Below are positions 25,114 through 56,536 of a DNA stretch of 64,000 bases, piece after piece. Made by a program: the position numbers and the translations under genes. The stretch is from sequence record PQ850608.1. One strand, written 5' to 3'. This DNA is from Escherichia phage HermannAdler_Bas98. Each line of letters starts with the position of its first letter. Position 1 is the first letter of the stretch. The notes under the pieces are model-generated. The model was given only the letters and a program-made list of their open reading frames with translations. It was not told where the DNA came from and did not search any database.

Positions 25114-26091
25114 TTAAAAATACTCCATATCGGTAATATCACGGAAGCATTTATACAAAGCAGAGCGCGGCACGTCGACGATGCCAAAGTTAAAGAATTT
25201 ATACGTTAGGTATTTATCGCGATAGTTCTCGCGATTCTCCCAAAGCATTTTACGCTCTGCCATAGGCATTGAACCAGCGGAGACGCGGAAAGGAATCATT
25301 TCACCTTTCTCATCCACATATTTTGGATTGACGACTACGAATGAGCCAAGGTATCCTTTCGCAACTAAACCTTCAGCCTCTTTTGAACGCTTGGTGCGAC
25401 CCAATTCGTCAATGAATGCTTCGTTGTTGTTCTCCATCATCTCAACGAAGTCTATGATCAACCCTTCTTCATCGGTCCACGGCTTGTCCTTCCACACATC
25501 ACGTGACTTCGGCGTCGCGCGGCCATGCTTATATTTGCCCGTCCAAGACTTGCCATACAAGCCTTCATAGCCAAGCTGGTCTGCTTCGATTTGCATTGCC
25601 GCGTACTGGTCCATATTTTCGATGTTGCGATATTCGAGAGCGCGAAGGAATGGACGTCGGCCATGGTCAATGAGATGTTGATTGACCTCAGCAACACGTC
25701 GATTGTACTTCTCATAACGGGCCGAGAATGGCAAATCAGGTTCGCTAAAGTCATCAAACACCCACCATGTAAAGTTAGTGATTGCATCAGTGTTCATGCA
25801 TGCAGTATAGGCCTGTTGCATGACGTTCTTGTCATTTGGATTGCCGTCGATTAGCTCTCCATCAAGTCCGTGAATTAATTCACCCAAGAAGAGGAACTCT
25901 TTTTTGATTTGAATGTTGCGCAGCGCCATGCCGGACGTGCCCATTGGCAAGTTGTCATACGCCATTGCGCGTATGCCATCGACCTTGAATGACAATCCGC
26001 AAGGCAGCGGCACGTCTTCGCCGCGCTCGATTATTTGCTTACGCTGGCAACCCTTCATTGGTTTTAATGCTTTGATTTCTCCTGCCATCAC
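25114..26091 (-). CDS. ATP-dependent DNA ligase
   Basis: Motif I SFKVDGIRA (KxDG), plus LDGELI, EGLYGK and DVWKDKPW motifs in the canonical order. Confidence 0.85.
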   Translation of the reverse strand: MMAGEIKALKPMKGCQRKQIIERGEDVPLPCGLSFKVDGIRAMAYDNLPMGTSGMALRNIQIKKEFLFLGELIHGLDGELIDGNPNDKNVMQQAYTACMNTDAITNFTWWVFDDFSEPDLPFSARYEKYNRRVAEVNQHLIDHGRRPFLRALEYRNIENMDQYAAMQIEADQLGYEGLYGKSWTGKYKHGRATPKSRDVWKDKPWTDEEGLIIDFVEMMENNNEAFIDELGRTKRSKEAEGLVAKGYLGSFVVVNPKYVDEKGEMIPFRVSAGSMPMAERKMLWENRENYRDKYLTYKFFNFGIVDVPRSALYKCFRDITDMEYF

Positions 26092-26681
26092 TCAAACTCC
26101 TTATTCATCACTTGTTCCAGCGCATAGGCGTAATCCTGATCAGTCGATTTGATAAACGTGCCGTTGTACATGACGCCTTTGCGGTCTTTGATGTCTTCGT
26201 AGGCAGCTTGCGCACAGTCGGATAAGCGAAGGCCATAATCATGAGCTACGCCGGAAAGGTAATCGACTGCGGCCATGATGGTGACGTCAATATCCATGGT
26301 TTGATTCTTGGCAATAGCATCACCAAGTCGTCCAAGGGTCTTTGCCAGGCGAAGGATAAATGAATGAGGGTGAGCGCCTTTATCAGCGCAACCGCCGCCA
26401 TTAATGTTTTCGATTTCAGCACCGTTTTGCGCTGCCAGGATGGTCAACACAACAAGGCAATCGCCAATGTCGTCCTTAATTGCAGCTTGCAAGTCACAGA
26501 TGGCCTGCTCTGTATATCCAATTTCAGGGTCGAAGAACACAAGGTCATGGAGTTGATCAACGTGGTCGGTTAACTCCCCAAACTCGCTGATAAGCTTCGG
26601 GTATTGGTCCTTAAGGTCGCAACCTTGGATGATGTTACGGTCAGAAGCCCACTGGCGAATGTTTGCATAAATCTGTTTCAT
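26088..26681 (-). CDS. MazG-like nucleotide pyrophosphohydrolase
   Basis: All-alpha pattern with LISEFGELTDHV and DDIGDCLVVLTILA, typical of MazG/HisE-type NTP-PPases. Confidence 0.6.
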   Translation of the reverse strand: MKQIYANIRQWASDRNIIQGCDLKDQYPKLISEFGELTDHVDQLHDLVFFDPEIGYTEQAICDLQAAIKDDIGDCLVVLTILAAQNGAEIENINGGGCADKGAHPHSFILRLAKTLGRLGDAIAKNQTMDIDVTIMAAVDYLSGVAHDYGLRLSDCAQAAYEDIKDRKGVMYNGTFIKSTDQDYAYALEQVMNKEFE

Positions 26682-27196
26682 TTATTTTCCTTTGATGCAT
26701 TGAATTGATCGATTTTTATTTTAGCCTGATTATAAGTATCAATCAAGCCATTAACTTTCTCTTTTAATCGATTTGTTTCTGCGGCGAACTGAACAAGAAA
26801 TCTGACATCTTCTTCTGATAGTCCACAGTTTCCTTCTGGGATAGAGAGGCGTCCAGTGGTCGCAGAGTCGGGCACACTCCTGAGTAACTCACGGGAGCAG
26901 CTGAGTTGCTCGCGCAGCTTGATATTCCCAGACTTGTAACGAGCAATAGTGTCATCAGCAACCAGTTGCGCTTCCTGGCGACCTTTCTCATATGCCGATG
27001 CCGATTCAACCTGTAAAGATGCAATTTGCTCTTCGAGTGCATTTATCTTGTCCTTACGCTCATTAAGCGATGTCAGATATTGATTATCCTTGGCCAGTGA
27101 TGCGTTGGTTTGCTGCAGGTCTTCAACGTATGATCCAGCGGCAAACGCGCCAACAAGGGCCAGAATCTTCAGGAGCGGTACAATTCTTTCTATCAT
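26678..27196 (-). CDS. i-spanin (Rz-like)
   Basis: N-terminal TMD IVPLLKILALVGAFAAGSY followed by long coiled-coil-like sequence. A lipoprotein ORF is embedded in the +1 frame. Confidence 0.6.
   Translation of the reverse strand: MIERIVPLLKILALVGAFAAGSYVEDLQQTNASLAKDNQYLTSLNERKDKINALEEQIASLQVESASAYEKGRQEAQLVADDTIARYKSGNIKLREQLSCSRELLRSVPDSATTGRLSIPEGNCGLSEEDVRFLVQFAAETNRLKEKVNGLIDTYNQAKIKIDQFNASKENK
26764..26955 (-). CDS. o-spanin (Rz1-like lipoprotein) embedded in the i-spanin gene
   Basis: MTLLLVTSLGISSC gives a lipobox-like ISSC. 63 aa, lying entirely inside 26678-27196 in another frame. Confidence 0.5.
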   Translation of the reverse strand: MTLLLVTSLGISSCASNSAAPVSYSGVCPTLRPLDASLSQKETVDYQKKMSDFLFSSPQKQID

Positions 27197-27253: not shown

Positions 27254-28114
27254 TTAAAACTCTTCTGCGTCGGTCGGAGTTTCATTGACAGGACCAGCGG
27301 CACCGCTTGCTTCTTCCTGCTTGCTGCGGTCGATGTTGACGTTGCCGCCCACTACGTCATTGTGGAATGCCTTGGCGACTTCGTACAGACCTTTGTCCTG
27401 CACCAGACCTTCCAACTCAAACTTCAGAACGGACCAGGTGTTGCCGTCTTTGGACTGAGATGCAGTGCCCATGCGAACAATGTTCATAAAGGTCGGCGGC
27501 GTTTTCAGGCCCTGCGGAGTCTGAACTTTCTTCTGCTGCAGAGCGGTCATCAGCATGCGAGACGGCTTGATCATGGAAGAAGTCAGGGACAGCATTGCGC
27601 TACCAAATTCACCCGTTTCTTCGTTCAACAGAATCACGAAGTGGTTACGTGTATCTGCATAGTAAGGAGATTTCTTCTCGTGCACTTTGCCGTTTTCGTC
27701 CGGCACAAATACCTTACCGTTGATCTCAACAGCGCGGCCTGCCGCGACTTCTGCATCAACGTGCTCTTTGGTGAATTCACCTTTAAAGCCTTTATCGTCG
27801 GACTCGCGACCGCCCCAAAGGATGAAGGTGCGTTTGAATGCGCAAGGGATGATCTGCACGCCTTTCTTGCCGTCATACAACTCACCAGTGACGGTGTTGT
27901 ACAGCATGCCAGCTTTTGCGCCAGGAACGTGTTTAGGATCATCTTCGTCGACCATAGGTGACATCTTCTGCAGGACGACGATAAAAGGAATGGCATACGC
28001 ATCGGCATCGGCACCTTCAAAACCAGCGCCAAAATCGGTCATGTCGACAAAATCAGCCATAGCGGACATCTGGGTGTTTTTCACTGCAACTTCGGTGGTT
28101 TCTTTCTTAGACAT
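27254..28114 (-). CDS. putative ssDNA-binding/annealing protein with acidic C-terminal tail
   Basis: 286 aa ending ...ETPTDAEEF. An acidic tail with a terminal Phe occurs in T7 gp2.5-type SSBs. The gene sits in the replication module. No fold-level evidence. Confidence 0.3.
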   Translation of the reverse strand: MSKKETTEVAVKNTQMSAMADFVDMTDFGAGFEGADADAYAIPFIVVLQKMSPMVDEDDPKHVPGAKAGMLYNTVTGELYDGKKGVQIIPCAFKRTFILWGGRESDDKGFKGEFTKEHVDAEVAAGRAVEINGKVFVPDENGKVHEKKSPYYADTRNHFVILLNEETGEFGSAMLSLTSSMIKPSRMLMTALQQKKVQTPQGLKTPPTFMNIVRMGTASQSKDGNTWSVLKFELEGLVQDKGLYEVAKAFHNDVVGGNVNIDRSKQEEASGAAGPVNETPTDAEEF

Positions 28115-28173: not shown

Positions 28174-28731
28174 TTACTTTTTGCTTTTAGGCAAGGTTAT
28201 TTTAGCTTCTTTGTATTCAAAAACGCTAATATCTTCACTAACTGGATTGCCTGCTTCCAGCTGTTCTTTTACAAACGACTTCAGTGTAGCAGAATGAACG
28301 CCTTGTTTCAATGTGGCTTCAACACCATCTTCACGCAGCGCGGCAACAATCTCTTGCGCCTGTTCGATTTCTTCGCGACCGAACTCAGCCGTGACGCTGG
28401 ACTTGATCAGGCCGCCGTAACCGTTGTTGACAAGCCAATCGAAAACTTTTAATTCGTTTTCTTTCTTGATCGAAGCATTCACCTTGGACTCGACCTTGAT
28501 TTTGGTCTTGTCCTCAAGCTTGATCTCAGACACGCCAAGCTCCTCCATAACGCCAGGAAGCAGAACAGTTTTGATTTCACTGATGCGCTGCTTTTGCATA
28601 TCAGCTTCATCTTCAAGCTCTGTCAAAGCCTCTTGGCGTTCTGCCAGTTCAGATACTAAGCGCGCAAGGCGCTCTTGAATGCTCTCAGGAGCGACCTGCG
28701 GCAAATCATCTTCCCAATTAATATTGCTCAT
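28174..28731 (-). CDS. hypothetical coiled-coil protein
   Basis: 185 aa. N-terminus is heptad-like (ERLARLVSELAERQEALTELEDEADMQKQRISEIK). Confidence 0.45.
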   Translation of the reverse strand: MSNINWEDDLPQVAPESIQERLARLVSELAERQEALTELEDEADMQKQRISEIKTVLLPGVMEELGVSEIKLEDKTKIKVESKVNASIKKENELKVFDWLVNNGYGGLIKSSVTAEFGREEIEQAQEIVAALREDGVEATLKQGVHSATLKSFVKEQLEAGNPVSEDISVFEYKEAKITLPKSKK

Positions 28732-30589: not shown

Positions 30590-31008
30590 GACAATTCCTC
30601 TAAATACTTGATGATGTGATGAATAGTTCCCTTCACGATTATCTCACGTTGAACGTCTGCAGTATTATAACGCTTTAATTCAATAGAAGGGTGGACTAAA
30701 TAAAACATCTTCTCAGAATCAACCTTAAGCAAAACGAATGATGGGTATCGCCAATCATTCCACGAAGAAAGGAAGCTGCACTGTCCTTTCTCAAATGCAT
30801 TTCTGAAAGGTGCAGTGGTGGCCCTTGCAGGCCACGATTCAAAGAACTTCATTTCAAGCCAAAAGCCGCGCCCTTTCCGGTTGGTGCCGATTACGTCCGG
30901 CACGCCATCACCAGTCATTGACTCGATTCGTTGAAGCTTCAATACTGATTCTGAATGCTTCTTCAAAGGTACGAATATGTATTTCTGCTCACGGTTATTT
31001 GTTGCCAT
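30586..31008 (-). CDS. VRR-NUC domain nuclease
   Basis: PD-(D/E)xK core GVPDVIG ... GFWLEMKF. ATGA overlap with the SNF2 gene, a common pairing. Confidence 0.7.
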   Translation of the reverse strand: MATNNREQKYIFVPLKKHSESVLKLQRIESMTGDGVPDVIGTNRKGRGFWLEMKFFESWPARATTAPFRNAFEKGQCSFLSSWNDWRYPSFVLLKVDSEKMFYLVHPSIELKRYNTADVQREIIVKGTIHHIIKYLEELS

Positions 31009-33892
31009 CTGGATACACCTGTTTGATCACGTCAACGATGAACATGTCAATGCCTTCAAGCTTACGACCTTTCATCAGGAAGAATGCGCCGTTCCCGACG
31101 TTTTCAGCAATGTACTTCCCGTACTTCTGGAACTTCTCTGGACGAATCCTGAAGCGCATTGGCGAGTCGGTCGAGTCGTCTTTGCACATAAGGTCAATGA
31201 ACTGAGTCTCAAGCTTGTTTCCATACTGGTCAAACTCTGCGTAGCGGCCATCAGCTTGAAGACCCTTTTTAAGTTTGCCGTGCTTTGTATAAATGCCGCG
31301 CTCAAGACGTTTACGGATGCGTGTTGCTTCGTTCTCGTCCGCAAGCACTTTCTTTGTCAACTTGCCGATTACTATTGCGCGCTCGTCATCACCGACTTCC
31401 TTCATCTGGCGTATTGAAGCGCCGGACGTCACACCAATCAGATACGGGTCATTATACGCCCAGCCAAACTTTGTGTGCATCTCTGTAAGGTCGCCGTATT
31501 TGACTTCAGCATTGGCCAATGCGTCCTTTTGCTTCTGCGTTAAGGTTCCGGCTTCACGCGCTTCGATGTACTTCATCGCCTTCACCATTCCGTACCCTTT
31601 CGCGTTCATAATGCCGCCGATTAGCTTTCCGTTCGCGATTGTCCAGTTCATTGAAGAGTGATCAGGGTCGATTGGAACGTAATCCACGCCTTCCTTCGCA
31701 AGTTCACGTAATATCGCAATCGTCTGGTCTTCGTCCTTAGCAGCGCGTAAGCAGGCTGCGGCAAATTCCAACGGGTAGTGTCGCTTAAGCCACAATGTCC
31801 AGTAGGTCACGACCGCGTATGACACGGAGTGTGACTTGTTAAAGCCCCATGACCCGAACGTAGCCATCGCTTGCCAAAGCTTTCTTGCATCCGCTTCCGG
31901 TACTCCGTTATTGATTGCGCCTGCAACAAAGTCCTCGCCAAGCTTGTTAAAGTATTCTTCACCCTTACGGCCTGACATCGCCTTACGCACAGCTGACGTT
32001 TTCGCCCAGTCAAATGAACCAATCTCTTTAACCACGGCCATGATTTGCTCTTGGTAAAGAAACACGCCGTAAGTCTCTTTCAAGTACGGCTCAAGCTGCG
32101 GCACGTCGTACTCAATCGGCGCACGTCCTGCCGCGCGTTCAATGTATTTCTGGGCCATACCGGATGACAACGGGCCAGGTCGACCCAAAGCTGTCAGGTT
32201 GTCGATTTTGTTAAAGTTGTCGACGTGCACAAAGTTTGTTACTGAGCGTACAGCGTCACCTTCAAACTGGAAGATGCCTGACATCTTGTTTTCGTTAAGA
32301 ATGTCAAGTACGCTTTGATCATCAAGCTTGATTCCGTAGAGCGTTTCAGCATCAATAACGCCTGTATCAGAAATAATGCCGAGAGTACGAAGGCCCAGCG
32401 CATCAAGCTTCAAAAGGTTAAGGTATTCGCTGTCAGGCTTATCGATTTGTGCAATCCCTTCCGCAGTTACAGTACAGTAATCAGAGATTGGGTCATTACA
32501 CACAATGATTCCCGCTGCGTGAACACCTGTGTGAGACGGGTGAATCTCAAGGTCACCCATGCAACGCGCGGCGTCAGGATATTTCGCCACGAACTCTTGG
32601 CCCGTGGTCGTTGTTGCAAAGGTATCCTCCAGGCCGTGGCCATAACGGGCGTCACCTGACGAGTATTCAAGCAGTGCGTTTTTAATGTTGGCCGTTTCGT
32701 GGTATCCAATGTTGAACTTCTTACCAACCTGCGCCATTACTGAGTTGGCCTTAAGCGTGTTGATGTTGCCAAGCTTTGCAACATTCATTTCGCCGTATTT
32801 CTCTTTAAGATAATCAAACACCATATAGCGTTTGGTATCTTCAAAGTCGATGTCGATGTCAGGGAGGTCGGCGCGGCTTACGTCGATGAATCGGGCAAAC
32901 AGCAGCTTATACGGGATTGGGTCCACTTCCGTGATGCCGAGGCAATAGCAAACAAGTGAACCAGCCGATGAGCCGCGAGCAGGACCGACGAGCATTTTTG
33001 TTTTTGCGAATCGTACAAGGTCCGCTACTACCAGAAAGTATGAGTCGAAATCTTTCAGCTGAATCTGGTGAATTTCTTCGTTGAAGCGGTCCTCATATTC
33101 CTGAGTCCATTCTTTGATGTGACCTGCTTTGAGACGGTACTCCATCCCCTCACGCGCAAGCTTTACCATATCACCAGCAAGGTGGATAATCGGTGCCTTG
33201 CGTAATTTCAGGTCAAGTCCGACTATGCCGTTTGCTATGTCAACAGCATTGGCCGTTGCCTGATTCAGCTCATCTTCCGTCAAGATGCCTTTAAGCTGTT
33301 TGCGCAAGTCTTCCGCGTCAACGATGCAGTGCGGCTTGACCGTGTCGCGCACTTCCCAAGCATAAGCAAAGTCAACGTGCTCAGGTGAAGGCATGTGGTT
33401 GTATCCGGTTAAAACCAGCGGCCTTCCACCGCTACGATGAGCCAATGCCTGGCGCTTTGCCAAAAGGAACGATGATGGGTTGACGTCTATATAGTCGTAG
33501 TCCTCTGGCCGCAGCAACTCCACGGCACCGCCACAGAATTTAACGACGCCATCGAGCGCCCCGAACTCTGCACGGGTAAGTCCACCGCGCTGCGTTGCAA
33601 GTGTTGTAGCGTTGTAAAAAGATTTTAAGTCAAGGGCCAATATCCAAGCCTTCGGTTTGAATCCCTTTTTCGGGTCCGCATCAGGGTCGATGATTGGAAT
33701 CTCCATTCCAAACATAGGCTTAATATCATTTTTCTGGCATTCCTTTTCCCAGCGAACGTGACCCCATGTATTGTTATCAACTAATGCCGCGACTTCGCAG
33801 CCCAACTCTTTGAGCCGTGCTATAATTTCAGGATGCCGTCCATATACTTCTTTGAACGTGTAACCGCTGCGAACTCTCAATTGTGGAAACAT
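30995..33892 (-). CDS. dnaE: DNA polymerase III alpha subunit (DnaE-type)
   Basis: 965 aa. N-terminal PHP-like region. Signature GPARGSSAGSLVCYCLGITEVDP and DIDIDFE. Confidence 0.9.
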   Translation of the reverse strand: MFPQLRVRSGYTFKEVYGRHPEIIARLKELGCEVAALVDNNTWGHVRWEKECQKNDIKPMFGMEIPIIDPDADPKKGFKPKAWILALDLKSFYNATTLATQRGGLTRAEFGALDGVVKFCGGAVELLRPEDYDYIDVNPSSFLLAKRQALAHRSGGRPLVLTGYNHMPSPEHVDFAYAWEVRDTVKPHCIVDAEDLRKQLKGILTEDELNQATANAVDIANGIVGLDLKLRKAPIIHLAGDMVKLAREGMEYRLKAGHIKEWTQEYEDRFNEEIHQIQLKDFDSYFLVVADLVRFAKTKMLVGPARGSSAGSLVCYCLGITEVDPIPYKLLFARFIDVSRADLPDIDIDFEDTKRYMVFDYLKEKYGEMNVAKLGNINTLKANSVMAQVGKKFNIGYHETANIKNALLEYSSGDARYGHGLEDTFATTTTGQEFVAKYPDAARCMGDLEIHPSHTGVHAAGIIVCNDPISDYCTVTAEGIAQIDKPDSEYLNLLKLDALGLRTLGIISDTGVIDAETLYGIKLDDQSVLDILNENKMSGIFQFEGDAVRSVTNFVHVDNFNKIDNLTALGRPGPLSSGMAQKYIERAAGRAPIEYDVPQLEPYLKETYGVFLYQEQIMAVVKEIGSFDWAKTSAVRKAMSGRKGEEYFNKLGEDFVAGAINNGVPEADARKLWQAMATFGSWGFNKSHSVSYAVVTYWTLWLKRHYPLEFAAACLRAAKDEDQTIAILRELAKEGVDYVPIDPDHSSMNWTIANGKLIGGIMNAKGYGMVKAMKYIEAREAGTLTQKQKDALANAEVKYGDLTEMHTKFGWAYNDPYLIGVTSGASIRQMKEVGDDERAIVIGKLTKKVLADENEATRIRKRLERGIYTKHGKLKKGLQADGRYAEFDQYGNKLETQFIDLMCKDDSTDSPMRFRIRPEKFQKYGKYIAENVGNGAFFLMKGRKLEGIDMFIVDVIKQVYPDGNK

Positions 33893-34434
33893 TATTTACT
33901 CCAGATGTCATATACGCCAATTTGTTGGCAGACTTTGTGCAGTAATATTACGTCGTCTAATGCACGGTGCTTCTGTTCATATTTTCCGAAATATAATTCA
34001 TACAGCTCTTGAAGCTTAACTCTTCGGCCAAAAATAGGCAAGGTTTGCTCGACCGTACAAACGTTTATTTCTGGGAAATTAACATCATCAAGTGTAAGTC
34101 CTTCGCGCTGTAATGCATAATCAAGAATGTTTTTATCGAACGCATGGTTGTGCGCGATAGTGGCATCAGTTTTCTTGAAGATTTCTTTTAGCTGTGGAAC
34201 GAAGTTGATGAATGGTGGATTGCACTCAAGGTCTTCATTGGTTAATCCGGTAATCTTTGTAATGATTTCTTCAATCACAATTTCAGGATTAATTATGAAT
34301 TCAAACGTTTCAAGAATCTCTTTGCCGTCCGTCAACAGGCCTGCAAATTCAATAGGGCGCGGCTGCATTCCAAGCGGCGCTTTCGGGTGCACGGTCAGTC
34401 CGGTTGTTTCGAAGTCATAAGGGAGAAATAACAC
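33892..34434 (-). CDS. DnaQ-like 3'-5' exonuclease (proofreading subunit)
   Basis: Exo I YDFETTGL, Exo II AHNHAFDKNIL, Exo III HRALDDV. Overlaps the polymerase start by 1 nt. Confidence 0.85.
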   Translation of the reverse strand: MLFLPYDFETTGLTVHPKAPLGMQPRPIEFAGLLTDGKEILETFEFIINPEIVIEEIITKITGLTNEDLECNPPFINFVPQLKEIFKKTDATIAHNHAFDKNILDYALQREGLTLDDVNFPEINVCTVEQTLPIFGRRVKLQELYELYFGKYEQKHRALDDVILLHKVCQQIGVYDIWSK

Positions 34435-34445
34435 ATTAGCCTCCT

Positions 34446-34472
34446 ACAAAAAGGCCGCCCATTAGGACGGCC
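34446..34472 (-). terminator. intrinsic terminator after the VOC gene
   Basis: Minus strand: GGCCGUCC-UAAU-GGGCGGCC followed by UUUUUG. Confidence 0.65.
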
Positions 34473-34488
34473 ACAGATTCACGATTCG

Positions 34489-35040
34489 TTATACAGTGTA
34501 CGGAGTACCTTCTTGATTCAAGCGCACGATAAACTTCAAATCAACGCCGATGATTTCACGCGTATCAAAGATCACATAGTTGTAACGACGTTGGCCAGCG
34601 ATGTTTGGGTTGGTGTGAGAATCAGTTACGACTTCCTGTGCAACCTGAATGCCTTCTTCGCTAAAGAACTTACGCCATTCAGCAAGTTCAGCAGCAGTCA
34701 CGTGCATACCAAGGTGGCTGACCTGATTATCGTGCGCATCGAGCATGTCGATGTTTTCATTAATCCAGTTGCAACCTTTTGTGTAGTCAAGGATTTCAAG
34801 CTCAAGAGGCTTACCAGCGCCGCCATCAGTACCGTTGCCAGCCTGATAGTTGAAGCGCAAGTCAGCTTCATTGGTGCAATCGCCGCGCTGACCTTTAAAG
34901 TCATCAGCTTCAAATACGCGACCAGTAGCAACAACGTGATCATGGAACCACTCTGTCAGGCCGATTTTAGCCAGGAAGTCCTGAGCGCGTTGAGCATCTG
35001 GAATGGACAGGGCGATTTGTTCAATTTTAAAATGTGGCAT
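34489..35040 (-). CDS. VOC/glyoxalase-fold protein
   Basis: Two beta-alpha-beta-like halves (IEQIALSIPDAQRAQDFLAKIGL and VSHLGMHVTAAELAEWRKFF) with ELEIL and DLKFIV, as in the glyoxalase/bleomycin-resistance/dioxygenase superfamily. Confidence 0.5.
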   Translation of the reverse strand: MPHFKIEQIALSIPDAQRAQDFLAKIGLTEWFHDHVVATGRVFEADDFKGQRGDCTNEADLRFNYQAGNGTDGGAGKPLELEILDYTKGCNWINENIDMLDAHDNQVSHLGMHVTAAELAEWRKFFSEEGIQVAQEVVTDSHTNPNIAGQRRYNYVIFDTREIIGVDLKFIVRLNQEGTPYTV

Positions 35041-35060
35041 TTTGTTTCCTTAATTAAATA

Positions 35061-35276
35061 TTATTGATTAATTACTGTGTTGTCTTCGTCCTGTTTCTTT
35101 TCAGGAGCGGGTGTGACAACTTCAAATTTAGGTTTGGGTAATTCACCTTTAGCGCCTGGGACTTCAACGACAATCTTTTTGTCAGGCTCAACAGGATTTG
35201 GAACTTCAAATTTGATTGTGTATCCTAATACAACAAGAAGCACTAAACCGATTACCGCTACCCAGGCTTTGTTCAT
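35061..35276 (-). CDS. small membrane-anchored protein (71 aa)
   Basis: N-terminal TMD WVAVIGLVLLVVLGY followed by a Pro/Lys/Glu-rich tail. Confidence 0.5.
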   Translation of the reverse strand: MNKAWVAVIGLVLLVVLGYTIKFEVPNPVEPDKKIVVEVPGAKGELPKPKFEVVTPAPEKKQDEDNTVINQ

Positions 35277-35278
35277 GG

Positions 35279-35446
35279 TTATTCGCCCTTATCTTTGCCT
35301 TCTATGGAATAAGTCTCAATGGAACCGACGCGCTCGTGGTTAACCTTTGCGTTTTCGATTCTTATTACTTCAAATCCAACGCCTTCTTGATCAATCTTCA
35401 CTTCTGCCACGTCGCCAATCACTTCTACAACAACTTTGATAGTCAT
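35279..35446 (-). CDS. small hypothetical protein (55 aa)
   Basis: Read by hand: MTIKVVVEVIGDVAEVKIDQEG.... It exactly fills the gap between the SDR stop and the next start (TAACCATG junction). Confidence 0.35.
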   Translation of the reverse strand: MTIKVVVEVIGDVAEVKIDQEGVGFEVIRIENAKVNHERVGSIETYSIEGKDKGE

Positions 35447-35449
35447 GAT

Positions 35450-36133
35450 TTATTTCCCAAATGGAATATCAGTACCAGACATAAAGCGCCATGCGCCCGT
35501 AATTAAGATATGGCGAATGAAGTCAGCAATTACTTGCGGCTCAGTCTCCAATCCATTCATCAATGCCTTTTTCTGGTATTCAGCGGCGTATTCAGGAGTC
35601 CATCCGCGAGTCGCGCAAACAGCATCTTCAATCTGTTTAGACATACCAGTGCCGCGCAACTTGTTAGGACTAATAGAGAATACCGTGATGCCGTATTTAG
35701 GCGTAAGCTCGTGAGCCATCTGCTTGCTAATCATAAGCGCAGCAGCCTTGGATGCATTATAACACAAGCTGGACGTCATAGGAATATGCGCAGCGTTAGA
35801 AACGATATTGATCACAAAACCTTTGTTGTCGATAAGACTTTTCAGCGCGGCCTGAGTCGTGTTGACGAAAGAGAAGGCGTTGGTGTGCATAACGCGATTG
35901 AACTCTTCGTAGTTAACATCTTCGAACCAGTTGTTGGAGTTGACGCCAGCGCAGTTGATCAAGCCTTCTACATCATATGGGCTTAAAATTTCTTTCATCT
36001 GTTTAGCGTCGCGGACGTCATATCCGTATGCTGAATCGATTCCAAGCACGTTATGACCGTAAGCGCCAAGGGTGTCAAAAATAGATTTACCAAGACCGGA
36101 ATTGGAACCTGTTACAACAATTACTTTTTTCAT
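35450..36133 (-). CDS. short-chain dehydrogenase/reductase (SDR)
   Basis: Cofactor motif VTGSNSGLGKS (TGxxxGxG) and catalytic YNASKAA (YxxxK). Confidence 0.85.
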   Translation of the reverse strand: MKKVIVVTGSNSGLGKSIFDTLGAYGHNVLGIDSAYGYDVRDAKQMKEILSPYDVEGLINCAGVNSNNWFEDVNYEEFNRVMHTNAFSFVNTTQAALKSLIDNKGFVINIVSNAAHIPMTSSLCYNASKAAALMISKQMAHELTPKYGITVFSISPNKLRGTGMSKQIEDAVCATRGWTPEYAAEYQKKALMNGLETEPQVIADFIRHILITGAWRFMSGTDIPFGK

Positions 36134-36154
36134 TTATTTATCCTTTTTGGACTT

Positions 36155-36198
36155 CGTTTCGATGAGGTAAATATAACTCATCGAAACGCACAAGTAAA
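36155..36198 (-). promoter_or_regulatory. sigma70-type promoter with its -10 nested in a perfect 12-bp inverted repeat
   Basis: Minus strand: TTTACT (36198-36193), 17-bp spacer, TATATT (36175-36170). The inverted repeat CGTTTCGATGAG (36155-36166) and CTCATCGAAACG (36177-36188) brackets the -10. Confidence 0.55.
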
Positions 36199-37074
36199 CT
36201 ATTTATTGAAATTAATATTATGGGTGTTAACAAGACGTTCACACATGGCGCTATAAACACCATCGTCGTGTATTGAGTCTTCGTGCTTCAGGCCGCTGAT
36301 TGCGAAGCGTGTAAGCTTGACAATCTTAAGCTCGAACAGATGCCACATGTGGTAGTCTTCCGGTGTCTTCAAAGTTACGCCATTAGGGAACAACACCTGC
36401 ATAACCTGACCTACCATCACAGCGTTATCGCCATAAACGGCATTGCGCTCACGGAAGGTCGCGGCCATCGCATCAAGAATATCAGCAGCGGTTGCTGGGG
36501 CTTGTTGTTCAACTTCAACAAGTTTAGTCTCTTCTTTCCCTGTTGCACTTGGATCAACTGCTAATTGTTGCACCACTTCACCTGCCTTGCAAAGATTAAA
36601 TGTAAAGGCGATTTTATTTTGCGCCATGGAATTATAGTGCAAAGCTTCTTCTTGCATCCGCGCGAGTACGTCTTGTCGGTCGTCGAATACATTGATGATT
36701 CGATAATCGCCGTGCCGCAAAGCGTGCGATAGCCATGCAGATTTCATAATAGTTGATGGACGTTTGTCGCCATAGTCTCTCATCTTGATTGTAAATTCAT
36801 CAAAAGGGAAAACATTGTCCAGACGTTCAAAAGTCACTTGTCTGTATTTTTCTGGCCTTGCAGTCCAATATTCAACCGCCTCACCGCGAAGAGATGCCGA
36901 CTCTACTGCTGATGCAATGTGAGGATAGAACTGATCATAACCAATACCGCTGTGATAGTCATCATAGTCTGACAACGGACCTGCCACCTTGATGCGGTCT
37001 AAGCGCCAACGGTCATCAAACAGCGTTCCGTCAAGGTCGAATACGTTTAAGATTTCGCTGTTTTTAATGCTCAT
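36199..37074 (-). CDS. HAD-family phosphatase fused to an all-alpha NTP-pyrophosphohydrolase-like domain
   Basis: N-terminal half has HAD motif I VFDLDGTLF and motif IV NVFDDRQDV. C-terminal half (FRERNAVYGDN ... KIVKLTRF ... HEDSIHDDGVYSAM) has the pattern of phage MazG-like/DUF1599-type domains. Confidence 0.55.
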   Translation of the reverse strand: MSIKNSEILNVFDLDGTLFDDRWRLDRIKVAGPLSDYDDYHSGIGYDQFYPHIASAVESASLRGEAVEYWTARPEKYRQVTFERLDNVFPFDEFTIKMRDYGDKRPSTIMKSAWLSHALRHGDYRIINVFDDRQDVLARMQEEALHYNSMAQNKIAFTFNLCKAGEVVQQLAVDPSATGKEETKLVEVEQQAPATAADILDAMAATFRERNAVYGDNAVMVGQVMQVLFPNGVTLKTPEDYHMWHLFELKIVKLTRFAISGLKHEDSIHDDGVYSAMCERLVNTHNINFNK

Positions 37075-37880
37075 CCTTTTGATACTCCATCTTTAGCAAC
37101 TGGATTGTTGGTGATTGGCATTGCACTCCAAAACTGGATGCGCAACTCTTCTTGCTGTGCCGTGGTATCCATCCAATCACGATACCAAGGGCAATGGGCT
37201 TTGCCATGACGAGGAAACGCGCATTTACCCATACCGATGCATTGCGGCTGTAATAGTGGATTTGCCCACGGGTGCACCTTGAGGACTTCCGCAACCATTG
37301 CGCGGAATACTTCTTGATACTCGCCTTGGGTGCGCGTGCACAAGCGGTTTGACGCCATCTGCTGCAGCGTGCGCAAGTTGAACTTTGCCATGATATGCGT
37401 TTGCATATTAGAAGGCAACACGGCACGTGCATCTTGAATCTCTGCGCCAGCCGCGCGAAGCTCTTGGTATAGAGCGTCAATCGTGGCCATCGCATCATCC
37501 CACTTCTCTGCCAATGAGTGATTTCTTATGTGCACATCATCAAATGCATTTTCATCATTGCAGTCAAAAGGGTGCTCGAATGCCTTCGGACGAATCGCAT
37601 CAAATGCAGACGACTCCTGAGCGCGGCTGGTGCGTTCTTGATATGCGCCTGTGCGTGTGCGTACCATCTGATGGGTCATGTTCTTTGATACAGCTGTGAT
37701 ATCAAAGATATAGTCCACAAAGTCAAAAGGAGACCTGATTGTATCAAGCATGTAGCGCCAGTGCTCTTGCTTCTCTGATTCTGTCATCTCAGAGACTGGC
37801 TTACCAGTCATGCGCGTGTTCTTTGTTTCCAGCAAAAGGTCAAGTGCATCTTGGGTGTATCGAATTAATTCAACTTTCAT
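37071..37880 (-). CDS. thyX: flavin-dependent thymidylate synthase-like protein (divergent ThyX)
   Basis: Alignable by eye to ThyX: QMVRTRTGAYQERTSRA against the canonical QWFRHRIASYNELSGRY, and ARAVLPSNMQTHIMAKFNLRTLQQMASNRL against [29 protein letters not shown]. Extra Cys/His-rich C-terminus. Confidence 0.7.
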   Translation of the reverse strand: MKVELIRYTQDALDLLLETKNTRMTGKPVSEMTESEKQEHWRYMLDTIRSPFDFVDYIFDITAVSKNMTHQMVRTRTGAYQERTSRAQESSAFDAIRPKAFEHPFDCNDENAFDDVHIRNHSLAEKWDDAMATIDALYQELRAAGAEIQDARAVLPSNMQTHIMAKFNLRTLQQMASNRLCTRTQGEYQEVFRAMVAEVLKVHPWANPLLQPQCIGMGKCAFPRHGKAHCPWYRDWMDTTAQQEELRIQFWSAMPITNNPVAKDGVSKG

Positions 37881-37893
37881 TTTAATTATCCTA

Positions 37894-38340
37894 TTAACGG
37901 TAATTCACTAGTTGCTGATCACCAGAGAAGGTGCAATGATAAACGAATTGTGCGTTATAAAGCAACTGAAAACTTTTCTTTGGTTCATTATTAGAACTCA
38001 TTGATGTAAAGATTTCTGCACCAGAACGGTTTTCACCAATCAGGTTAATAAAGTCGCCAGTTGAACGAGGCTGAACGAAAGTGAAACGCTGCATCCACGG
38101 AGTCCGGTTGGCACCTTTTCCGGTGAATCCCTGAATCTGAATATTCAGACCTTCTTGCTCGTTCACACCGATGTAAGTGGTAATTGTTGCGCCAGTCGTC
38201 GCTGCAGTCTTGCCGTCCATCGCTTCGCAATCGTAAACAGCGATTGAATCGGAAGTACGGACAGCGGCTTCAGTCGCTTCCATATACATGGTTCCGAGAA
38301 TAGCAGTTGCGGCAAGCGCGATTCCAGTGATGCGTTTCAT
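37894..38340 (-). CDS. secreted protein, function unknown
   Basis: Signal-peptide-like N-terminus MKRITGIALAATAILGTMYMEATEA. 148 aa. Confidence 0.5.
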   Translation of the reverse strand: MKRITGIALAATAILGTMYMEATEAAVRTSDSIAVYDCEAMDGKTAATTGATITTYIGVNEQEGLNIQIQGFTGKGANRTPWMQRFTFVQPRSTGDFINLIGENRSGAEIFTSMSSNNEPKKSFQLLYNAQFVYHCTFSGDQQLVNYR

Positions 38341-38358
38341 TTTCGTTTCCTCTATGAG

Positions 38359-38404
38359 TTCTGCTTCAATGATTAAAGTATACGCCCATTGAAGCAGAAA
38401 GCAA
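38359..38404 (-). promoter_or_regulatory. sigma70-type promoter with its -10 nested in a perfect 13-bp inverted repeat
   Basis: Minus strand: TTGCTT (38404-38399), 16-bp spacer, TATACT (38382-38377). The inverted repeat TTCTGCTTCAATG (38359-38371) and CATTGAAGCAGAA (38387-38399) brackets the -10. Confidence 0.55.
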
Positions 38405-38405
38405 A

Positions 38406-39401
38406 TTATTTATTAGCAATATAAGCAAATTTTTGATAGTTATTTGCTTTGATGAGTTTTTCAACTTCAGCAAGGTCATGAGCGACGTCATCAAGCAAAA
38501 TGTTTCGCCAAGTAGCGAATCGACCGACACTAAATACGTTCAAATCCATGGTCAGTTGCAGGAGTAGAGCGTGTCGCAAGTCTTTCGGAATGTCGACAAT
38601 CTTGCCATACTTCTGGTCGACCTTTTCAACTTCTTCGAGAGCGATGTCACTCCATGATAGGCCAAAGGCTGTCAATACTTCGTCAACTTCTGCACGCAAC
38701 TTAATGTCACGGTAACGAGTAATGCCGCCAGCGGCTTCAACTGCGGCTTCACTTACGCTAACCAAAGGAATTGTTTCGATGATCAGCGTGTCACCAGTGA
38801 TTGATGCGCGGTAAGTTCTGACGGAGTAGTCAGGGAAGTAAATTGTCTGATACAACTCACACTTACGTTTAATCTTAAAGCGGTAAACACGAATGTTTGC
38901 TTTATCAAATGAAAAATCAAGCTTTTGATCAATCCCAGCCAGCTTCATCATAACTGGCAGCGGCGACGTGTTGATGATTGGCGTCTCGCTATAGCCGCAA
39001 AGAGTATCAACAGGAGTATTAAAGAATATGCGGTCGCCCAGTTTGTCGACAAGCTGATCATAAAAGTCATCAGGCGCAATATAACGCGTTGCAGTTTTAA
39101 GCTTCATGATTGAACGGCTGCCAAACTGATTGGTGACCTTCATGGAATACATATTGGCAAGGTTGATTGGACAATGGTCGTGGTAGTAGTTGCCGCGAAA
39201 ATACACAGCCTTGTCAACTGTCACGGCCTTAAAAGGGATTCCGGTAATACGGCTTACTTCTTCGCCGCGAAAGCGTAGCAGTGCCTTGTGCTGTGGCGCT
39301 CGCTCCCCTGCTTCGTACACAATAGAGTTCGGGAAGTGACACGCGGTGATAAGTCCTGCCAAACCGCCGCCGATAATCATTACAGGTTGTTTCATGTTCA
39401 T
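38406..39401 (-). CDS. FAD/NAD(P)-binding oxidoreductase
   Basis: N-terminal Rossmann motif VMIIGGGLAGLITA. C-terminal VGRFATWRNILLDDV resembles the tail of UDP-galactopyranose mutase/amine-oxidase-type flavoproteins. Confidence 0.55.
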   Translation of the reverse strand: MNMKQPVMIIGGGLAGLITACHFPNSIVYEAGERAPQHKALLRFRGEEVSRITGIPFKAVTVDKAVYFRGNYYHDHCPINLANMYSMKVTNQFGSRSIMKLKTATRYIAPDDFYDQLVDKLGDRIFFNTPVDTLCGYSETPIINTSPLPVMMKLAGIDQKLDFSFDKANIRVYRFKIKRKCELYQTIYFPDYSVRTYRASITGDTLIIETIPLVSVSEAAVEAAGGITRYRDIKLRAEVDEVLTAFGLSWSDIALEEVEKVDQKYGKIVDIPKDLRHALLLQLTMDLNVFSVGRFATWRNILLDDVAHDLAEVEKLIKANNYQKFAYIANK

Positions 39402-39425: not shown

Positions 39426-39454
39426 AGTATAATAGCTAAATTATTTTACAGCAA
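39426..39454 (-). promoter_or_regulatory. sigma70-type promoter for the oxidoreductase operon
   Basis: Minus strand: TTGCTG, 17-bp spacer, TATACT. Confidence 0.55.
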
Positions 39455-39480
39455 CAAGTCATTTCTATTTAGTACAGACG

Positions 39481-39507
39481 AAAAAAGACCCACAACAAGT
39501 GTGGGTC
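39481..39507 (-). terminator. intrinsic terminator after the K/A/E-rich protein gene
   Basis: Minus strand: GACCCACA-cttgt-TGTGGGTC followed by TTTTTT. Confidence 0.75.
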
Positions 39508-39535: not shown

Positions 39536-40381
39536 TTATTCCGCTTGATCACCGTCTTCGGCATCGTCGTTGGATTCAACATCGACAAACTCGATGTGGC
39601 CCATCTCTTCCAGCTTGCTCAGGTAGGAGCGAACGGAAGCGCCAAACAGCTGATCTTTAACTTTCTCGCCCAGCTCATCGATAGACTGCGCCACGCCAAC
39701 TTCGCCTTCTTTGATCGCCGCCAGAACGCGCCCACGGGTGGAGTGCTCCTGCGGCTGGCTCAGGCCGTTGCCAGTGTAGATGAAGTGAGTAGCTTTTGCA
39801 CGGCGCTGACCGTTTGCCTTTTTGGCAGCCTTGCGCTCTGCGATGGCTTTGCGACGTTCTTCAGCTTCTTTCTTACGCTGTTCTTTTTGCTGTTCTGCAG
39901 CTTCTTTCGCCGCGATCTTAGCAGCTTCACGCTCTGCCTTGCGTTTCGCTTTCGCTTCTTCTTTAGCCTTCTCTTTTTCGGCCTTTGCTGCAGCACGGGC
40001 TTGATCACGCTCTGCTTTCTTAGCAGCAGCTTGTTCAGCTTTCAGGCGCTTGGCTTCTTCTTTGGCCTTTGCCTTTTCGATTTCTTTTGCTGCTTTAGCG
40101 GCTTCACGCTCTGCTTTCTTAGCAGCAGCCTTTTCTGCACGCTCTTTAGCTTTCTTAGCTGCTTCTTCAGCACGCTTCTGAGCCTTCTCATCAGCAGCCT
40201 GTTTGCGCTTCAGCGCGGCTTCTTCACGCTTGGCTTGTTTTTCCTGCTCACGCTTCTGGCGTTTTTCTTCGGCTTCTTTCTTTTTAGCCAGGCGTTTTTC
40301 TTCAGCCACGCGACGACGTTCTGCTGCGGCTGCTTGTTTTTCTTCTTTAGATAATACTTTGATTGCTTCGGCCATATTCAC
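39536..40381 (-). CDS. K/A/E/R-rich charged-helix protein with globular C-terminal domain and acidic tail
   Basis: About 190 aa of near-continuous KAAEK/EEAKR low-complexity sequence, then about 80 aa of ordinary sequence ending DDAEDGDQAE. Own promoter and terminator. Confidence 0.6.
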   Translation of the reverse strand: MNMAEAIKVLSKEEKQAAAAERRRVAEEKRLAKKKEAEEKRQKREQEKQAKREEAALKRKQAADEKAQKRAEEAAKKAKERAEKAAAKKAEREAAKAAKEIEKAKAKEEAKRLKAEQAAAKKAERDQARAAAKAEKEKAKEEAKAKRKAEREAAKIAAKEAAEQQKEQRKKEAEERRKAIAERKAAKKANGQRRAKATHFIYTGNGLSQPQEHSTRGRVLAAIKEGEVGVAQSIDELGEKVKDQLFGASVRSYLSKLEEMGHIEFVDVESNDDAEDGDQAE

Positions 40382-54992: not shown

Positions 54993-55481
54993 ATGGGATT
55001 TTGCACTATGAGTCAAGATTATGTAGCGATGCCTGAAGACTTTGAAGACCCGCGATTCGCAGAGCACAATCAGGCTTTATTCGATGAGTTCATTGACCTT
55101 GTTATTCAGGGTCATGACATGCGCGCAGCTTTTGCACTAGTATTTGGAATGGAAGTTGCAACGGATAACTACACTGGCCAGCGAATCCTTTGCACGCAAC
55201 GCAATCCATACTACAAGATGCGCTTCAAAAAGCGTATGGAAGAGATGCCACTCAAGGATTTGTGGAGCGTAAAAGGTGCAATTCACAATTTGGTCAAGCT
55301 TGTGCGTGATCCAGAAGTCGCGGCGTCAGCCAAGCTTAATGCTATTCGTGAACTGAATATCATCTACGGCATCACGATGATTGATGAAAACGGCAATAGT
55401 AAAATGGGCCGTTCTATGGACGATTTCTACAAGGATTTTGGAGAGGCTGCCAAAGAAGGAGAGCAATTCTCCCGCCACTAG
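54993..55481 (+). CDS. small-terminase-like protein (tentative)
   Basis: HDMRAAFALVFGM ... QRNPYYKMRFKKRMEE ... DLWSVKGAIHNLVKLVRD ... AKLNAIRELNIIYGI has the HTH plus oligomerisation-helix pattern of TerS proteins. The start may instead be ATG 55008. No adjacent large terminase. Confidence 0.4.
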   Translation: MGFCTMSQDYVAMPEDFEDPRFAEHNQALFDEFIDLVIQGHDMRAAFALVFGMEVATDNYTGQRILCTQRNPYYKMRFKKRMEEMPLKDLWSVKGAIHNLVKLVRDPEVAASAKLNAIRELNIIYGITMIDENGNSKMGRSMDDFYKDFGEAAKEGEQFSRH

Positions 55482-55909: not shown

Positions 55910-56536
55910 TTAGATAATCTGGAAGGTGTAGGACTTGTTGCCGAACTCGAAGTTCAAGCGTCCAGCTTCTTTAAGCTTCATGCGGAAGCGAATGTGCTTG
56001 CTATCCGGTAATCCCAGCGCGGCGAAGGCTACGCGGACCGATTTGAACTCGCCTACACCCTCGACCATAACGCCGTTACGGGTGAGACGCTTTTGCGCCA
56101 CTTCCTTATTATCCCAACTTTTTGCAATACCTTCGCTATTCGAACGGCGATGGGAAGGAGTTCCATTTTGCACTACGCAATTTGCACTATCGTTTAAGCC
56201 GCTCTTAACGAAGGCTTCATACTCTTCATCGCTCATCGCGTCGAGTTCTTCCTGGGTCGGCTCAGCCTTTTTAACGACCGCACGCGCCTTATGCGTTTTT
56301 ACATCACTGGACACTTCCTCACGCGGCTTCGCGTCGGGAATGGGCGATTCGTTGGACGGCTCATCGAGCGCGTTTAAGGACTCGATTAACGCGATTACGC
56401 GAGTCTCGGCGGTCCGGCGGTCCGCAAATTTCTTAATCGGCTTCGAACCGGAATTTGCATTATAAAATGCAACGAGGTCGGCGGTCTTAGTTGCGATAAC
56501 GTCGCCGCTAGTAGAAAAGCGATTTAAGCTAACCAT
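55910..56536 (-). CDS. hypothetical protein
   Basis: 208 aa. RBS context TAGGAGTTTATTATGG is shared with 56617-56931. CpG-rich codon usage. Confidence 0.5.
   Translation of the reverse strand: MVSLNRFSTSGDVIATKTADLVAFYNANSGSKPIKKFADRRTAETRVIALIESLNALDEPSNESPIPDAKPREEVSSDVKTHKARAVVKKAEPTQEELDAMSDEEYEAFVKSGLNDSANCVVQNGTPSHRRSNSEGIAKSWDNKEVAQKRLTRNGVMVEGVGEFKSVRVAFAALGLPDSKHIRFRMKLKEAGRLNFEFGNKSYTFQII

Follow-up and report, generated by a model that had tools for sequence, protein, structure and literature searches.

Hypermodified thymidine is already known from several phages, and a modified thymidine is also known from Pbunavirus, a genus of Pseudomonas phages. Virion DNA of the Pbunavirus phages F8 and 14-1 resists restriction enzymes that have TG in their sites, and F8 DNA is cut by EcoRI; liquid chromatography-mass spectrometry of F8 and 14-1 DNA found new nucleosides of 362 and 390 Da, with about a quarter of the thymidines replaced, in a TG motif, which the authors read as tetrose sugar alcohol and cyclic aldopentose derivatives of thymidine (Yee et al., bioRxiv 10.1101/2025.03.31.646159, PMC12191111). 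The same authors stress that F8 and 14-1 are without known modification genes (PMC12191111), and we found no later paper in the literature that assigns genes to the Pbunavirus modification. The DNA of Bacillus phage SP-15 contains 5-(4',5'-dihydroxypentyl)uracil (DHPU), made by a pathway that is itself unsolved, and in this phage a divergent Thy1-family gene (gp130) directly follows a gene for a short-chain dehydrogenase/reductase (SDR; gp129) (Kropinski et al. 2018, PMC5977210). Here we describe an operon of eight genes, positions 34489-39401 of a 64,000-nucleotide stretch (the window) of Escherichia phage HermannAdler_Bas98 (PQ850608.1), which comprises most of the genome of this member of the genus Wifcevirus. 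Our tentative reading, on which we are almost evenly divided, is that the operon is the phage's thymidine-hypermodification module, attaching a substituent derived from a sugar or polyol to the C5-methyl of thymidine and protecting the DNA from restriction.

Layout of the operon

Wifceviruses are myoviruses of E. coli and Shigella with genomes of about 68 kb, and form a sister genus to Pbunavirus, to which they are distantly related. Twenty-eight Wifcevirus genomes align with 80% or more of the region 34489-39401 at 92-95% identity, the best match being that of Escherichia phage ManiWeber (Bas99; 95.3% identity). The eight leftward open reading frames (ORFs) of the original prediction, which was made from the sequence alone, were all found at the coordinates it gave, on the minus strand. 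They form one discrete unit that is bracketed exactly by two strong intrinsic terminators, both of which are also annotated at matching places in phage Mansfield. The prediction had placed the operon downstream of the polymerase and exonuclease genes, whereas in the direction of transcription it lies upstream of both. In that direction, the features are as follows.

39487..39507, minus strand: intrinsic terminator, 8-bp stem with 5 GC pairs, then TTTTTT; ends the upstream gene (39536-40381) and forms the 5' boundary of the operon
39440..39467, minus strand: weak sigma-70-like promoter candidate, TAGAAA-16-AATAAT, 9/12 matches; precedes the first gene
38406..39401, minus strand: flavoprotein of the flavin adenine dinucleotide (FAD) type, 331 amino acids, GxGxxG, phrog_4828; predicted UDP-galactopyranose mutase (UGM)/amine-oxidase/renalase fold
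37894..38340, minus strand: 148-amino-acid ORF with an N-terminal signal-peptide-like segment; Wifcevirus-specific
37071..37880, minus strand: non-canonical ThyX, Thy1 domain, 269 amino acids; C-terminal extension with four conserved cysteines
36550..37074, minus strand: haloacid dehalogenase (HAD) phosphatase domain, Pnkp type; DLDGT, T71, K111 and DDRxD motifs
36202..36498, minus strand: four-helix C-terminal domain fused to the HAD domain, very highly conserved; whole protein 36199-37074, 291 amino acids
35450..36133, minus strand: classical SDR, FabG-like, 227 amino acids, adh_short
35279..35446, minus strand: 55-amino-acid ORF; varies among Wifceviruses
35061..35276, minus strand: 71-amino-acid ORF with an N-terminal hydrophobic helix; lineage-specific
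34489..35040, minus strand: candidate of the vicinal oxygen chelate (VOC; glyoxalase/dioxygenase) fold, 183 amino acids; nearly always found with the SDR in related loci
34453..34472, minus strand: intrinsic terminator, 8-bp stem with 7 GC pairs, then TTTTT; 3' boundary of the operon, between the VOC and exonuclease genes
33892-34434, minus strand: epsilon-like 3'-5' exonuclease; invariant downstream neighbour of the module
30995-33892, minus strand: DnaE-type polymerase; invariant downstream neighbour of the module

The start of the HAD gene overlaps the stop of thyX by 4 nt. A promoter scan of the region gave no more matches than shuffled sequences did, and no strong promoter above chance.

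A core shared across distant phages

We retrieved 87 related loci through the flavoprotein and a further 73 through the ThyX clade (about 160 phage loci). The order they share is flavoprotein, ThyX, HAD protein with its four-helix domain, SDR and VOC proteins where present, exonuclease, and DnaE-type polymerase. It is seen in Myosmarvirus, Carpasinavirus, a Cronobacter podovirus and a Ralstonia phage, in Pbunavirus without the SDR and VOC genes, and, with wider spacing between the genes, in Rhizobium jumbo phages. Start and stop codons within the block often overlap across the related loci.

Members of the ThyX clade are encoded in 83 of the 87 flavoprotein loci, the HAD protein in 79, the four-helix domain in 74, the SDR in 53 (about 60%) and the VOC protein in 51; in the four loci without ThyX, the sequence ends within 1.9 kb downstream. 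Conversely, a flavoprotein gene is present in 69 of the 73 ThyX-clade loci, and in the other four the upstream sequence extends no further than 1.5 kb. Co-occurrence of the two genes is strong both ways, with cut contigs as the exceptions. The counts of the two proteins in GenBank phages are identical for each host genus (Pseudomonas, 292; Escherichia, 26; Serratia, 9; Xanthomonas, 6). Co-occurrence in related phages had been proposed earlier as a check on the module; in the comparison, the core keeps a fixed order and place next to the genes for the exonuclease and the polymerase. The core trio of flavoprotein, atypical ThyX and HAD protein with four-helix domain is, as far as gene order and codon overlap can indicate, a fixed and co-translated block in all relatives.

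The flavoprotein

The flavoprotein is assigned to phrog_4828 in PHROGs, and matches no Pfam family at E<=0.1 (the GLF domain, PF03275, included), no NCBIfam model and no PDB sequence. Its AlphaFold2 model is confident (pLDDT 88, pTM 0.84). In a Foldseek comparison of the model with the PDB, eukaryotic UGMs rank at the top (E=1.5e-10, TMq up to 0.65), followed by monoamine oxidases, protoporphyrinogen oxidase and renalase, the top set having TM values of 0.55-0.65 at 10-13% identity. Since monoamine oxidases and renalase score like UGM, the model identifies the fold, that of the UGM/amine-oxidase FAD proteins, and not UGM specificity; membership of the UGM family is not established. This agrees with the original description of a GxGxxG flavoprotein with a UGM/amine-oxidase-like tail. 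The protein shares with UGM, monoamine oxidase and renalase a predicted two-domain FAD fold, an N-terminal GxGxxG and a C-terminal FAD motif, GR-x-x-x-W/Y...DD. It differs from them in its low identity and lack of a Pfam match, in being smaller than UGMs, and in belonging to a phage-only family that is always found beside ThyX and replication genes.

A homologue search returned 1911 proteins; almost all are encoded on contigs of phage size, and Pfam domains are absent from every one. An exhaustive profile search gave 1146 representative clusters, 1001 of them below 1e-10, and family members have 290-340 residues. In 185,579 species-representative genomes there were six hits, all on contigs of metagenome-assembled genomes (MAGs): four contigs of 42-59 kb have the full phage gene order, and on two fragments of 3 and 9 kb the flavoprotein is followed by ThyX before the contig ends. 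Gene order in these six contigs is kept at 29-41% identity. No cellular relatives were found in the 185,579 genomes beyond the six phage-like MAG contigs, and the family appears to be sharply delimited and essentially phage-only.

The family has an invariant C-terminal motif, S-[ILV]-G-R-F-A-[TC]-W...L-L-D-D, and its other invariant residues include H38, R43, R45, R96, R106, Y188, R198, K267, R276 and R294. Because so many arginine, lysine and tyrosine residues are invariant, the substrate is probably anionic. The flavoprotein genes have no glycan or nucleotide-sugar context among the related loci; their neighbours are always ThyX, HAD, exonuclease and polymerase genes.

The non-canonical ThyX

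The ThyX homologue contains a clear Thy1 domain (PF02511; E=1.7e-29, 103.4 bits against a Pfam gathering cutoff of 24.8), and scores 78.1 bits with the NCBIfam equivalog TIGR02170, under the cutoff of 87.9. We surveyed the ThyX signature in 83 homologues neighbouring a flavoprotein gene, aligned to the Thermotoga maritima and Mycobacterium tuberculosis enzymes and numbered as in T. maritima. Residues R78, R80, R90, R147, R174 and Q75 are kept in 82-83 of the 83 sequences (at most one gap). The equivalents of His53 and His59 are isoleucine and phenylalanine, respectively, in all 83; that of His79 is threonine, serine or asparagine, with histidine absent throughout; that of His178 is arginine in 82. 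Tyr91 is replaced by valine or alanine in 81 sequences and by isoleucine or threonine in the other two, and tyrosine occurs in none. The motif in the window reads R-T-R-x7-T-S-R-A, against the canonical RHR-x7-S followed by R-Y. The altered signature residues noted earlier in this protein are thus real, with RTR...T.R.A in place of RHR...S.RY, and the alteration extends across the 83 clade members. We take the arginines to bind deoxyuridine monophosphate (dUMP), and His53 and Tyr91 to contact the folate/flavin stack and the substrate.

Four cysteines, C181, C214, C220 and C230 (RLC...C-x5-C-x9-C), lie in and after the Thy1 domain and are conserved in 40 of the 83 sequences, which form a myovirus subclade that includes the window. 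Their pattern suggests a metal or iron-sulfur site; we know of no such site described for ThyX. Compared with canonical ThyX (T. maritima, M. tuberculosis, PBCV-1), the protein retains the Thy1 domain and the putative substrate-binding arginines and Q75, but has RTR for RHR, has lost His53, His59, Tyr91 and His178, falls below the equivalog cutoff and, in this myovirus subclade, has an extra C-terminal segment bearing the cysteines. "ThyX-like" proteins of Gordonia and Mycobacterium phages also have the RxR motif, the loss of the tyrosine and a similar cysteine pattern, and no flavoprotein homologue was seen in these phage groups.

The HAD protein and its four-helix domain

The HAD protein matches HAD_PNKP (PF25109, E=5.9e-8) and phrog_4889. 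Its HAD domain has the DxDGT nucleophile motif, motifs II-IV and the fold of the Pnkp type, and is closer to polynucleotide 3'-phosphatases than to known deoxynucleoside monophosphate (dNMP) nucleotidases. After a variable linker follows a C-terminal domain that is all-alpha, with four helices in the predicted model. Mean column identity is 66% in this domain, against 38% for the whole protein. It has no match in Pfam (E<=10) or the PDB, and hhalign gives a probability of 1% against the phage's own MazG. Of the originally proposed fusion of a HAD phosphatase to an all-alpha domain resembling a nucleoside triphosphatase (NTPase), the HAD and all-alpha parts therefore hold, and the NTPase part finds no support, Pfam, the PDB and hhalign having given no MazG or NTPase similarity.

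The four-helix domain occurs as a separate ORF of about 100 amino acids in several related phages (contigs of about 43-58 kb), and is an independent module.

The SDR, the VOC candidate and the small ORFs

The SDR assignment of the original prediction stands: the protein matches adh_short (E=2.6e-31) and phrog_3142 ("FabG-like"), and keeps the cofactor motif (T8-G9...G13-L14-G15 and N60-C-A-G63) and a catalytic-type tetrad, N85-S112-Y125-K129, conserved in 47 homologues. The VOC/glyoxalase fold proposed alongside it has as its match a weak, sub-threshold hit to Glyoxalase_4 (E=0.0066; 17.2 bits, under the cutoff of 27), and a search with the VOC protein against PDB sequences gave no hit. Residues Q8, E80, E82, H109, H113 and H142 are conserved in its 44 homologues, a Gln/Glu/His set compatible with a metal site. 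Both proteins are generic, the SDR a FabG-like classical member, and neither can be assigned to a specific subfamily. The earlier suggestion that the SDR is a FolM-like reductase is neither strengthened nor weakened by these matches.

The 148-, 71- and 55-amino-acid ORFs are found in 4, 2 and 2 of the 87 related loci and are lineage-specific. The 148-amino-acid protein has no Pfam or PHROG hit and probably lies outside the conserved module. The interval between the VOC and SDR genes (35040-35450) differs among Wifceviruses: it holds the 71- and 55-amino-acid ORFs in the window, the 71-amino-acid ORF alone in Mansfield and one 56-amino-acid ORF in Bas99. This variation is the cause of a gap in the megablast alignments.

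Restriction resistance and modified thymidine in relatives

In the BASEL data, Wifceviruses are refractory to several restriction systems, with EcoP1_I as the exception. The efficiency of plating (EOP) of Bas99 is 0.33-0.42 on the EcoRI host (38 tabulated sites) and about 1 on the EcoRV (8 sites) and EcoCFT_II (92 sites) hosts, and no plaques form on the EcoP1_I host (89 sites); a control phage with similar site numbers drops to an EOP of 1e-5 to 1e-7 (BASEL raw data). The table counts palindromic sites (EcoRI, EcoRV) in both orientations, so that 38 corresponds to 19 EcoRI sites. Avoidance of restriction sites was considered as the cause of resistance and rejected, as EcoRI sites number 18 in the window, where about 16 are expected (our estimate, 64,000/4^6).

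The type III system EcoP1_I, whose site AGACC occurs 74 times in the window, blocks phages Bas98-Bas100 completely, whereas EcoCFT_II, also of type III and with a similar site number, leaves them unaffected. This contrast could report the sequence context of a modification.

By our arithmetic, the 362 Da nucleoside of the Pbunaviruses corresponds to 5-hydroxymethyldeoxyuridine (5-hmdU; 258) plus tetritol (122) minus water, and also to deoxythymidine (242) plus tetrose (120), and the 390 Da nucleoside to 5-hmdU (258) plus pentose (150) minus water. The blocks of F8 and 14-1 have the same gene content (HAD proteins 79% identical, small ORFs about 78%). As a source of their different modifications, the differences between the two blocks were uninformative, amounting to sequence divergence only.

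Other candidate enzymes and neighbouring genes

We scanned the non-structural ORFs of the window for other enzymes, a scan that covered the small ORFs and structural genes in part and in which very divergent members could have been missed by Pfam. Among these ORFs, no glycosyltransferase, kinase, dioxygenase or methyltransferase was detected, and outside the operon no small-molecule enzyme except a MazG-like protein. Neither in these ORFs nor in the Bas99 annotation did we detect a ThyA-family dUMP hydroxymethylase, a DNA 5-hydroxymethyluracil (5-HMU) kinase, an aGPT-Pplase, or tailoring enzymes of the pyridoxal-phosphate or radical S-adenosylmethionine type. Among the ORFs scanned, the gene set thus appears to be without all hallmark enzymes of the known hypermodification pathways. 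After their first step, those pathways reportedly use a 5-HMU DNA kinase and then aGPT-Pplase-type transferases. A homologue of the anti-END inhibitor of 14-1 (taken to be ORF88) was likewise not found in the window.

The non-structural genes common to the window and Pbunavirus 14-1 are those for replication proteins, the MazG-like protein, the core trio and a few proteins of unknown function, among them the Lys/Ala/Glu-rich protein encoded upstream of the operon. The MazG-like gene and the other shared proteins of unknown function are the following.

26088..26681, minus strand: MazG-like pyrophosphatase, away from the operon; common to Pbunavirus
27254-28114: Pam3 gp34-like protein (PF23977)
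28174-28731: PF23984/DUF7307 protein
54993-55481: phrog_4783 protein
55910-56536: phrog_4730 protein

If DNA-modifying or anti-restriction functions went undetected, the last four are the candidates that remain. The MazG-like gene, which the original prediction had listed as a second one of its kind, is confirmed by PHROGs (phrog_1992, E=1.2e-62); its Pfam MazG match is only E=0.019.

Between the MazG-like gene and the Pam3 gp34-like gene, inside the replication gene cluster and apart from the endolysin, sits a spanin pair, the o-spanin gene (26764-27042) nested within the i-spanin gene (26678-27196, both on the minus strand), following the annotations of Mansfield and Bas99. Upstream of the operon, 39536-40381 (minus strand) encodes a 281-amino-acid protein (phrog_4765), for the most part low-complexity repeats rich in Lys, Ala and Glu, whose C-terminus is short and globular. 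In the myovirus clade this protein is conserved as the neighbour upstream of the operon, and its counterpart in Pbunavirus LBL3 is annotated as a putative structural protein. Over the whole window, the dinucleotide TA is depleted (observed/expected 0.69), and TG, CA and TT are mildly enriched (1.14-1.18).

A possible route to hypermodified thymidine

The core trio is our best candidate for the genes that make the sugar-bearing thymidine of Pbunavirus. The sequences show the layout of the operon, its conservation, enzymes with intact catalytic motifs and the altered ThyX signature; the link between genes and modification is one we infer. In the route that we propose, the ThyX homologue would still bind dUMP and carry out flavin-dependent one-carbon chemistry at C5. 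Because the conserved tyrosine and histidine residues are lost, its product is possibly not plain deoxythymidine monophosphate (dTMP), and it may instead release 5-hydroxymethyl-dUMP or a C5 adduct. The UGM/amine-oxidase-fold flavoprotein would process or couple a sugar, which the SDR and VOC proteins may tailor in the lineages that have both. The Pnkp-like HAD domain would take off a phosphate remaining on the sugar or the DNA, and the adjoining polymerase and exonuclease would replicate the resulting DNA.

Eight lines of evidence support hypermodification by this operon: its bracketing by terminators, the synteny of the block, the phage-only flavoprotein, the ThyX signature, the Pbunavirus modification, the resistance of Bas99, the elimination of other enzymes and the SP-15 precedent. 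Together they bring us close to accepting it, and leave us just short of doing so. The general idea of a DNA-modification module in the original prediction gains strong indirect support from the fixed block, the modified thymidine of Pbunavirus and the resistance of Bas99. Its argument from nucleoside triphosphate pyrophosphatase and nucleoside monophosphate phosphatase activities to the exclusion of a canonical nucleotide finds no support, in that the C-terminal domain is not detectably an NTPase and the HAD domain resembles polynucleotide 3'-phosphatases, not dNMP nucleotidases. Nor is thymidine excluded in Pbunavirus, since only about a quarter of the thymidines are replaced.

Several points weigh against hypermodification by the operon. 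The modification itself has been demonstrated in the Pbunavirus relatives, and is extended by inference to this phage and its genes. Modification specific to TG implies an enzyme that reads sequence on DNA, none of which was recognised, and the ThyX arginines suggest that the substrate is a mononucleotide. The modifications of F8 and 14-1 differ, but the gene content of the block does not, and Pbunavirus DNA is modified in phages that have neither the SDR nor the VOC gene. TG is absent from the sites of EcoRI and EcoRV, both of which Wifceviruses resist, and EcoRI cuts F8 DNA; the Wifcevirus modification would therefore have to be of another specificity, or another anti-restriction mechanism be at work. 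The altered ThyX signature is not specific to the module, because the actinophage "ThyX-like" proteins share its RxR, tyrosine loss and cysteine motif where no flavoprotein was seen. Finally, the operon proteins have no detectable similarity to SP-15 gp129, gp130 or gp131.

Alternative explanations

The alternative that survives best, although we consider it unlikely, is housekeeping supply of dTMP. ThyX would then be an ordinary if divergent enzyme, the flavoprotein its dedicated flavin/NAD(P)H partner and the HAD, SDR and VOC proteins accessory, with the modification encoded elsewhere, perhaps by the shared proteins at 27254-28114, 28174-28731, 54993-55481 and 55910-56536, which could carry the chemistry. 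The strict pairing of two flavoproteins and the histidine losses in ThyX fit a two-component enzyme; the lost histidines presumably contact flavin, folate or NADPH, and the nearest structural relatives of the flavoprotein include the NAD(P)H-binding eukaryotic UGMs and renalase. The block is always within the replication module, and the actinophage ThyX-like proteins are similarly substituted without a flavoprotein. This explanation, however, gives no role to the SDR, the VOC protein and the Pnkp-type phosphatase, which are fixed in order across very distant phages, and leaves the sugar-derived thymidine of Pbunavirus without a recognisable enzyme. A further point against it is that ThyX enzymes as a rule use NAD(P)H to reduce their FAD themselves, as is established and also stated in the literature.

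Modification at the DNA level is an improbable alternative. Here, ThyX would only supply dTMP, and the flavoprotein would oxidise thymine within a short DNA motif to an exocyclic methylene, which a sugar phosphate of the pentose phosphate pathway, erythrose-4-phosphate or a pentose-5-phosphate, would trap before dephosphorylation by the HAD domain. Such a scheme suits the TG specificity of the Pbunavirus modification, in which about 25% of thymidines are replaced, as 26% of the thymines on both strands of the window have G as the next base. It also suits the kinship of the HAD domain to phosphatases that act on polynucleotides and the reported masses, equal by our arithmetic to 5-hmdU plus tetritol or pentose minus water. 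However, no DNA-binding domain was recognised in the flavoprotein, oxidation of DNA thymine by a flavin enzyme has no precedent that we know of, and the scheme would not account for the flavoprotein being so tightly coupled in translation to a ThyX that binds mononucleotides.

A more speculative form of hypermodification by the operon, which we rate as a long shot, has the atypical ThyX and the UGM-fold flavoprotein couple a sugar of the pentose phosphate pathway, and not the folate methylene, to C5 of dUMP through a flavin-N5-iminium. The resulting C5-polyol or C5-glycosyl deoxyuridine nucleotides would, at the same long remove, be the 362 and 390 Da bases of Pbunavirus, kin to the dihydroxypentyl-uracil of SP-15, and be incorporated by the DnaE-type polymerase.

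Least credible by far is a true UGM that, with sugar enzymes, remodels host surface glycans or the nucleotide-sugar pool independently of DNA: the annotators of phage Mansfield did name the protein UDP-galactopyranose mutase through HHpred, and Wifceviruses depend on the O16 O-antigen, which contains galactofuranose, but the protein lacks a GLF match, is only 10-13% identical to UGMs, and belongs to a family found in phages of Pseudomonas, Xanthomonas, Rhizobium, Ralstonia and uncultured hosts, between replication genes and beside ThyX, never with a recognised glycan-synthesis gene.

If the operon does hypermodify thymidine, it would explain the restriction resistance of Wifceviruses, provide genomic markers from which modified DNA, and susceptibility to END and other modification-dependent nucleases, could be predicted by sequence alone, and supply new enzymes with which modified DNA could be made. 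Pbunaviruses rank with the most widely used phages in Pseudomonas therapy, and their modified thymidine has been found only recently. The operon offers a short, testable gene list, with three core genes and two more in Wifcevirus, Myosmarvirus and Carpasinavirus, and more than 1000 related metagenome clusters.

Comparison with known systems

The Pbunaviruses F8 and 14-1 share with the window the flavoprotein, ThyX and HAD-four-helix core, the exonuclease, the DnaE-type polymerase and most replication genes. They differ in lacking the SDR and VOC genes, in a modification located at TG, and in DNA that EcoRI cuts, whereas Wifcevirus resists EcoRI in vivo.

SP-15 offers a polyol chain on uracil C5, partial replacement of thymidine and a divergent Thy1 gene abutting an SDR gene; by our arithmetic, the 362 Da nucleoside of F8 equals the DHPU deoxynucleoside plus two oxygens. 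Homology of gp129, gp130 and gp131 to the operon proteins was sought and was not detectable, only the unrelated HAD-like gp135 giving a weak match, and the relation is one of analogy only.

The Z-genome cluster of aminoadenine phages consists of PurZ, DatZ, MazZ and DpoZ. There, too, a dedicated polymerase stays with a biosynthetic enzyme and with hydrolases that act on nucleotides; the base is a different one, the enzymes are unrelated, and in the studied relatives of our phage the canonical base is not fully replaced.

To our knowledge, the set of a ThyX-family protein, a UGM-fold flavoprotein and a Pnkp-type phosphatase has not been linked to DNA modification before. Thymidine hypermodification in M6, ViI, PaMx11, SP10 and phiW-14 (Lee et al. 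2021) resembles the scheme proposed here in its C5-methyl target, partial replacement of thymidine, protection from restriction and passage through a C5 exocyclic-methylene or hydroxymethyl stage, the last as we propose it. Those pathways start with a ThyA-family dUMP hydroxymethylase, whereas the operon has the unrelated ThyX family and a UGM-fold flavoprotein. Should the operon prove to modify thymidine, it would represent a ThyX- and flavoprotein-based route to hypermodification that is unrelated to the ThyA/kinase/transferase pathways; and should the sugar-coupling chemistry also hold, it would be a second, ThyA-independent route to hypermodified thymidine, widespread in uncultured phages.

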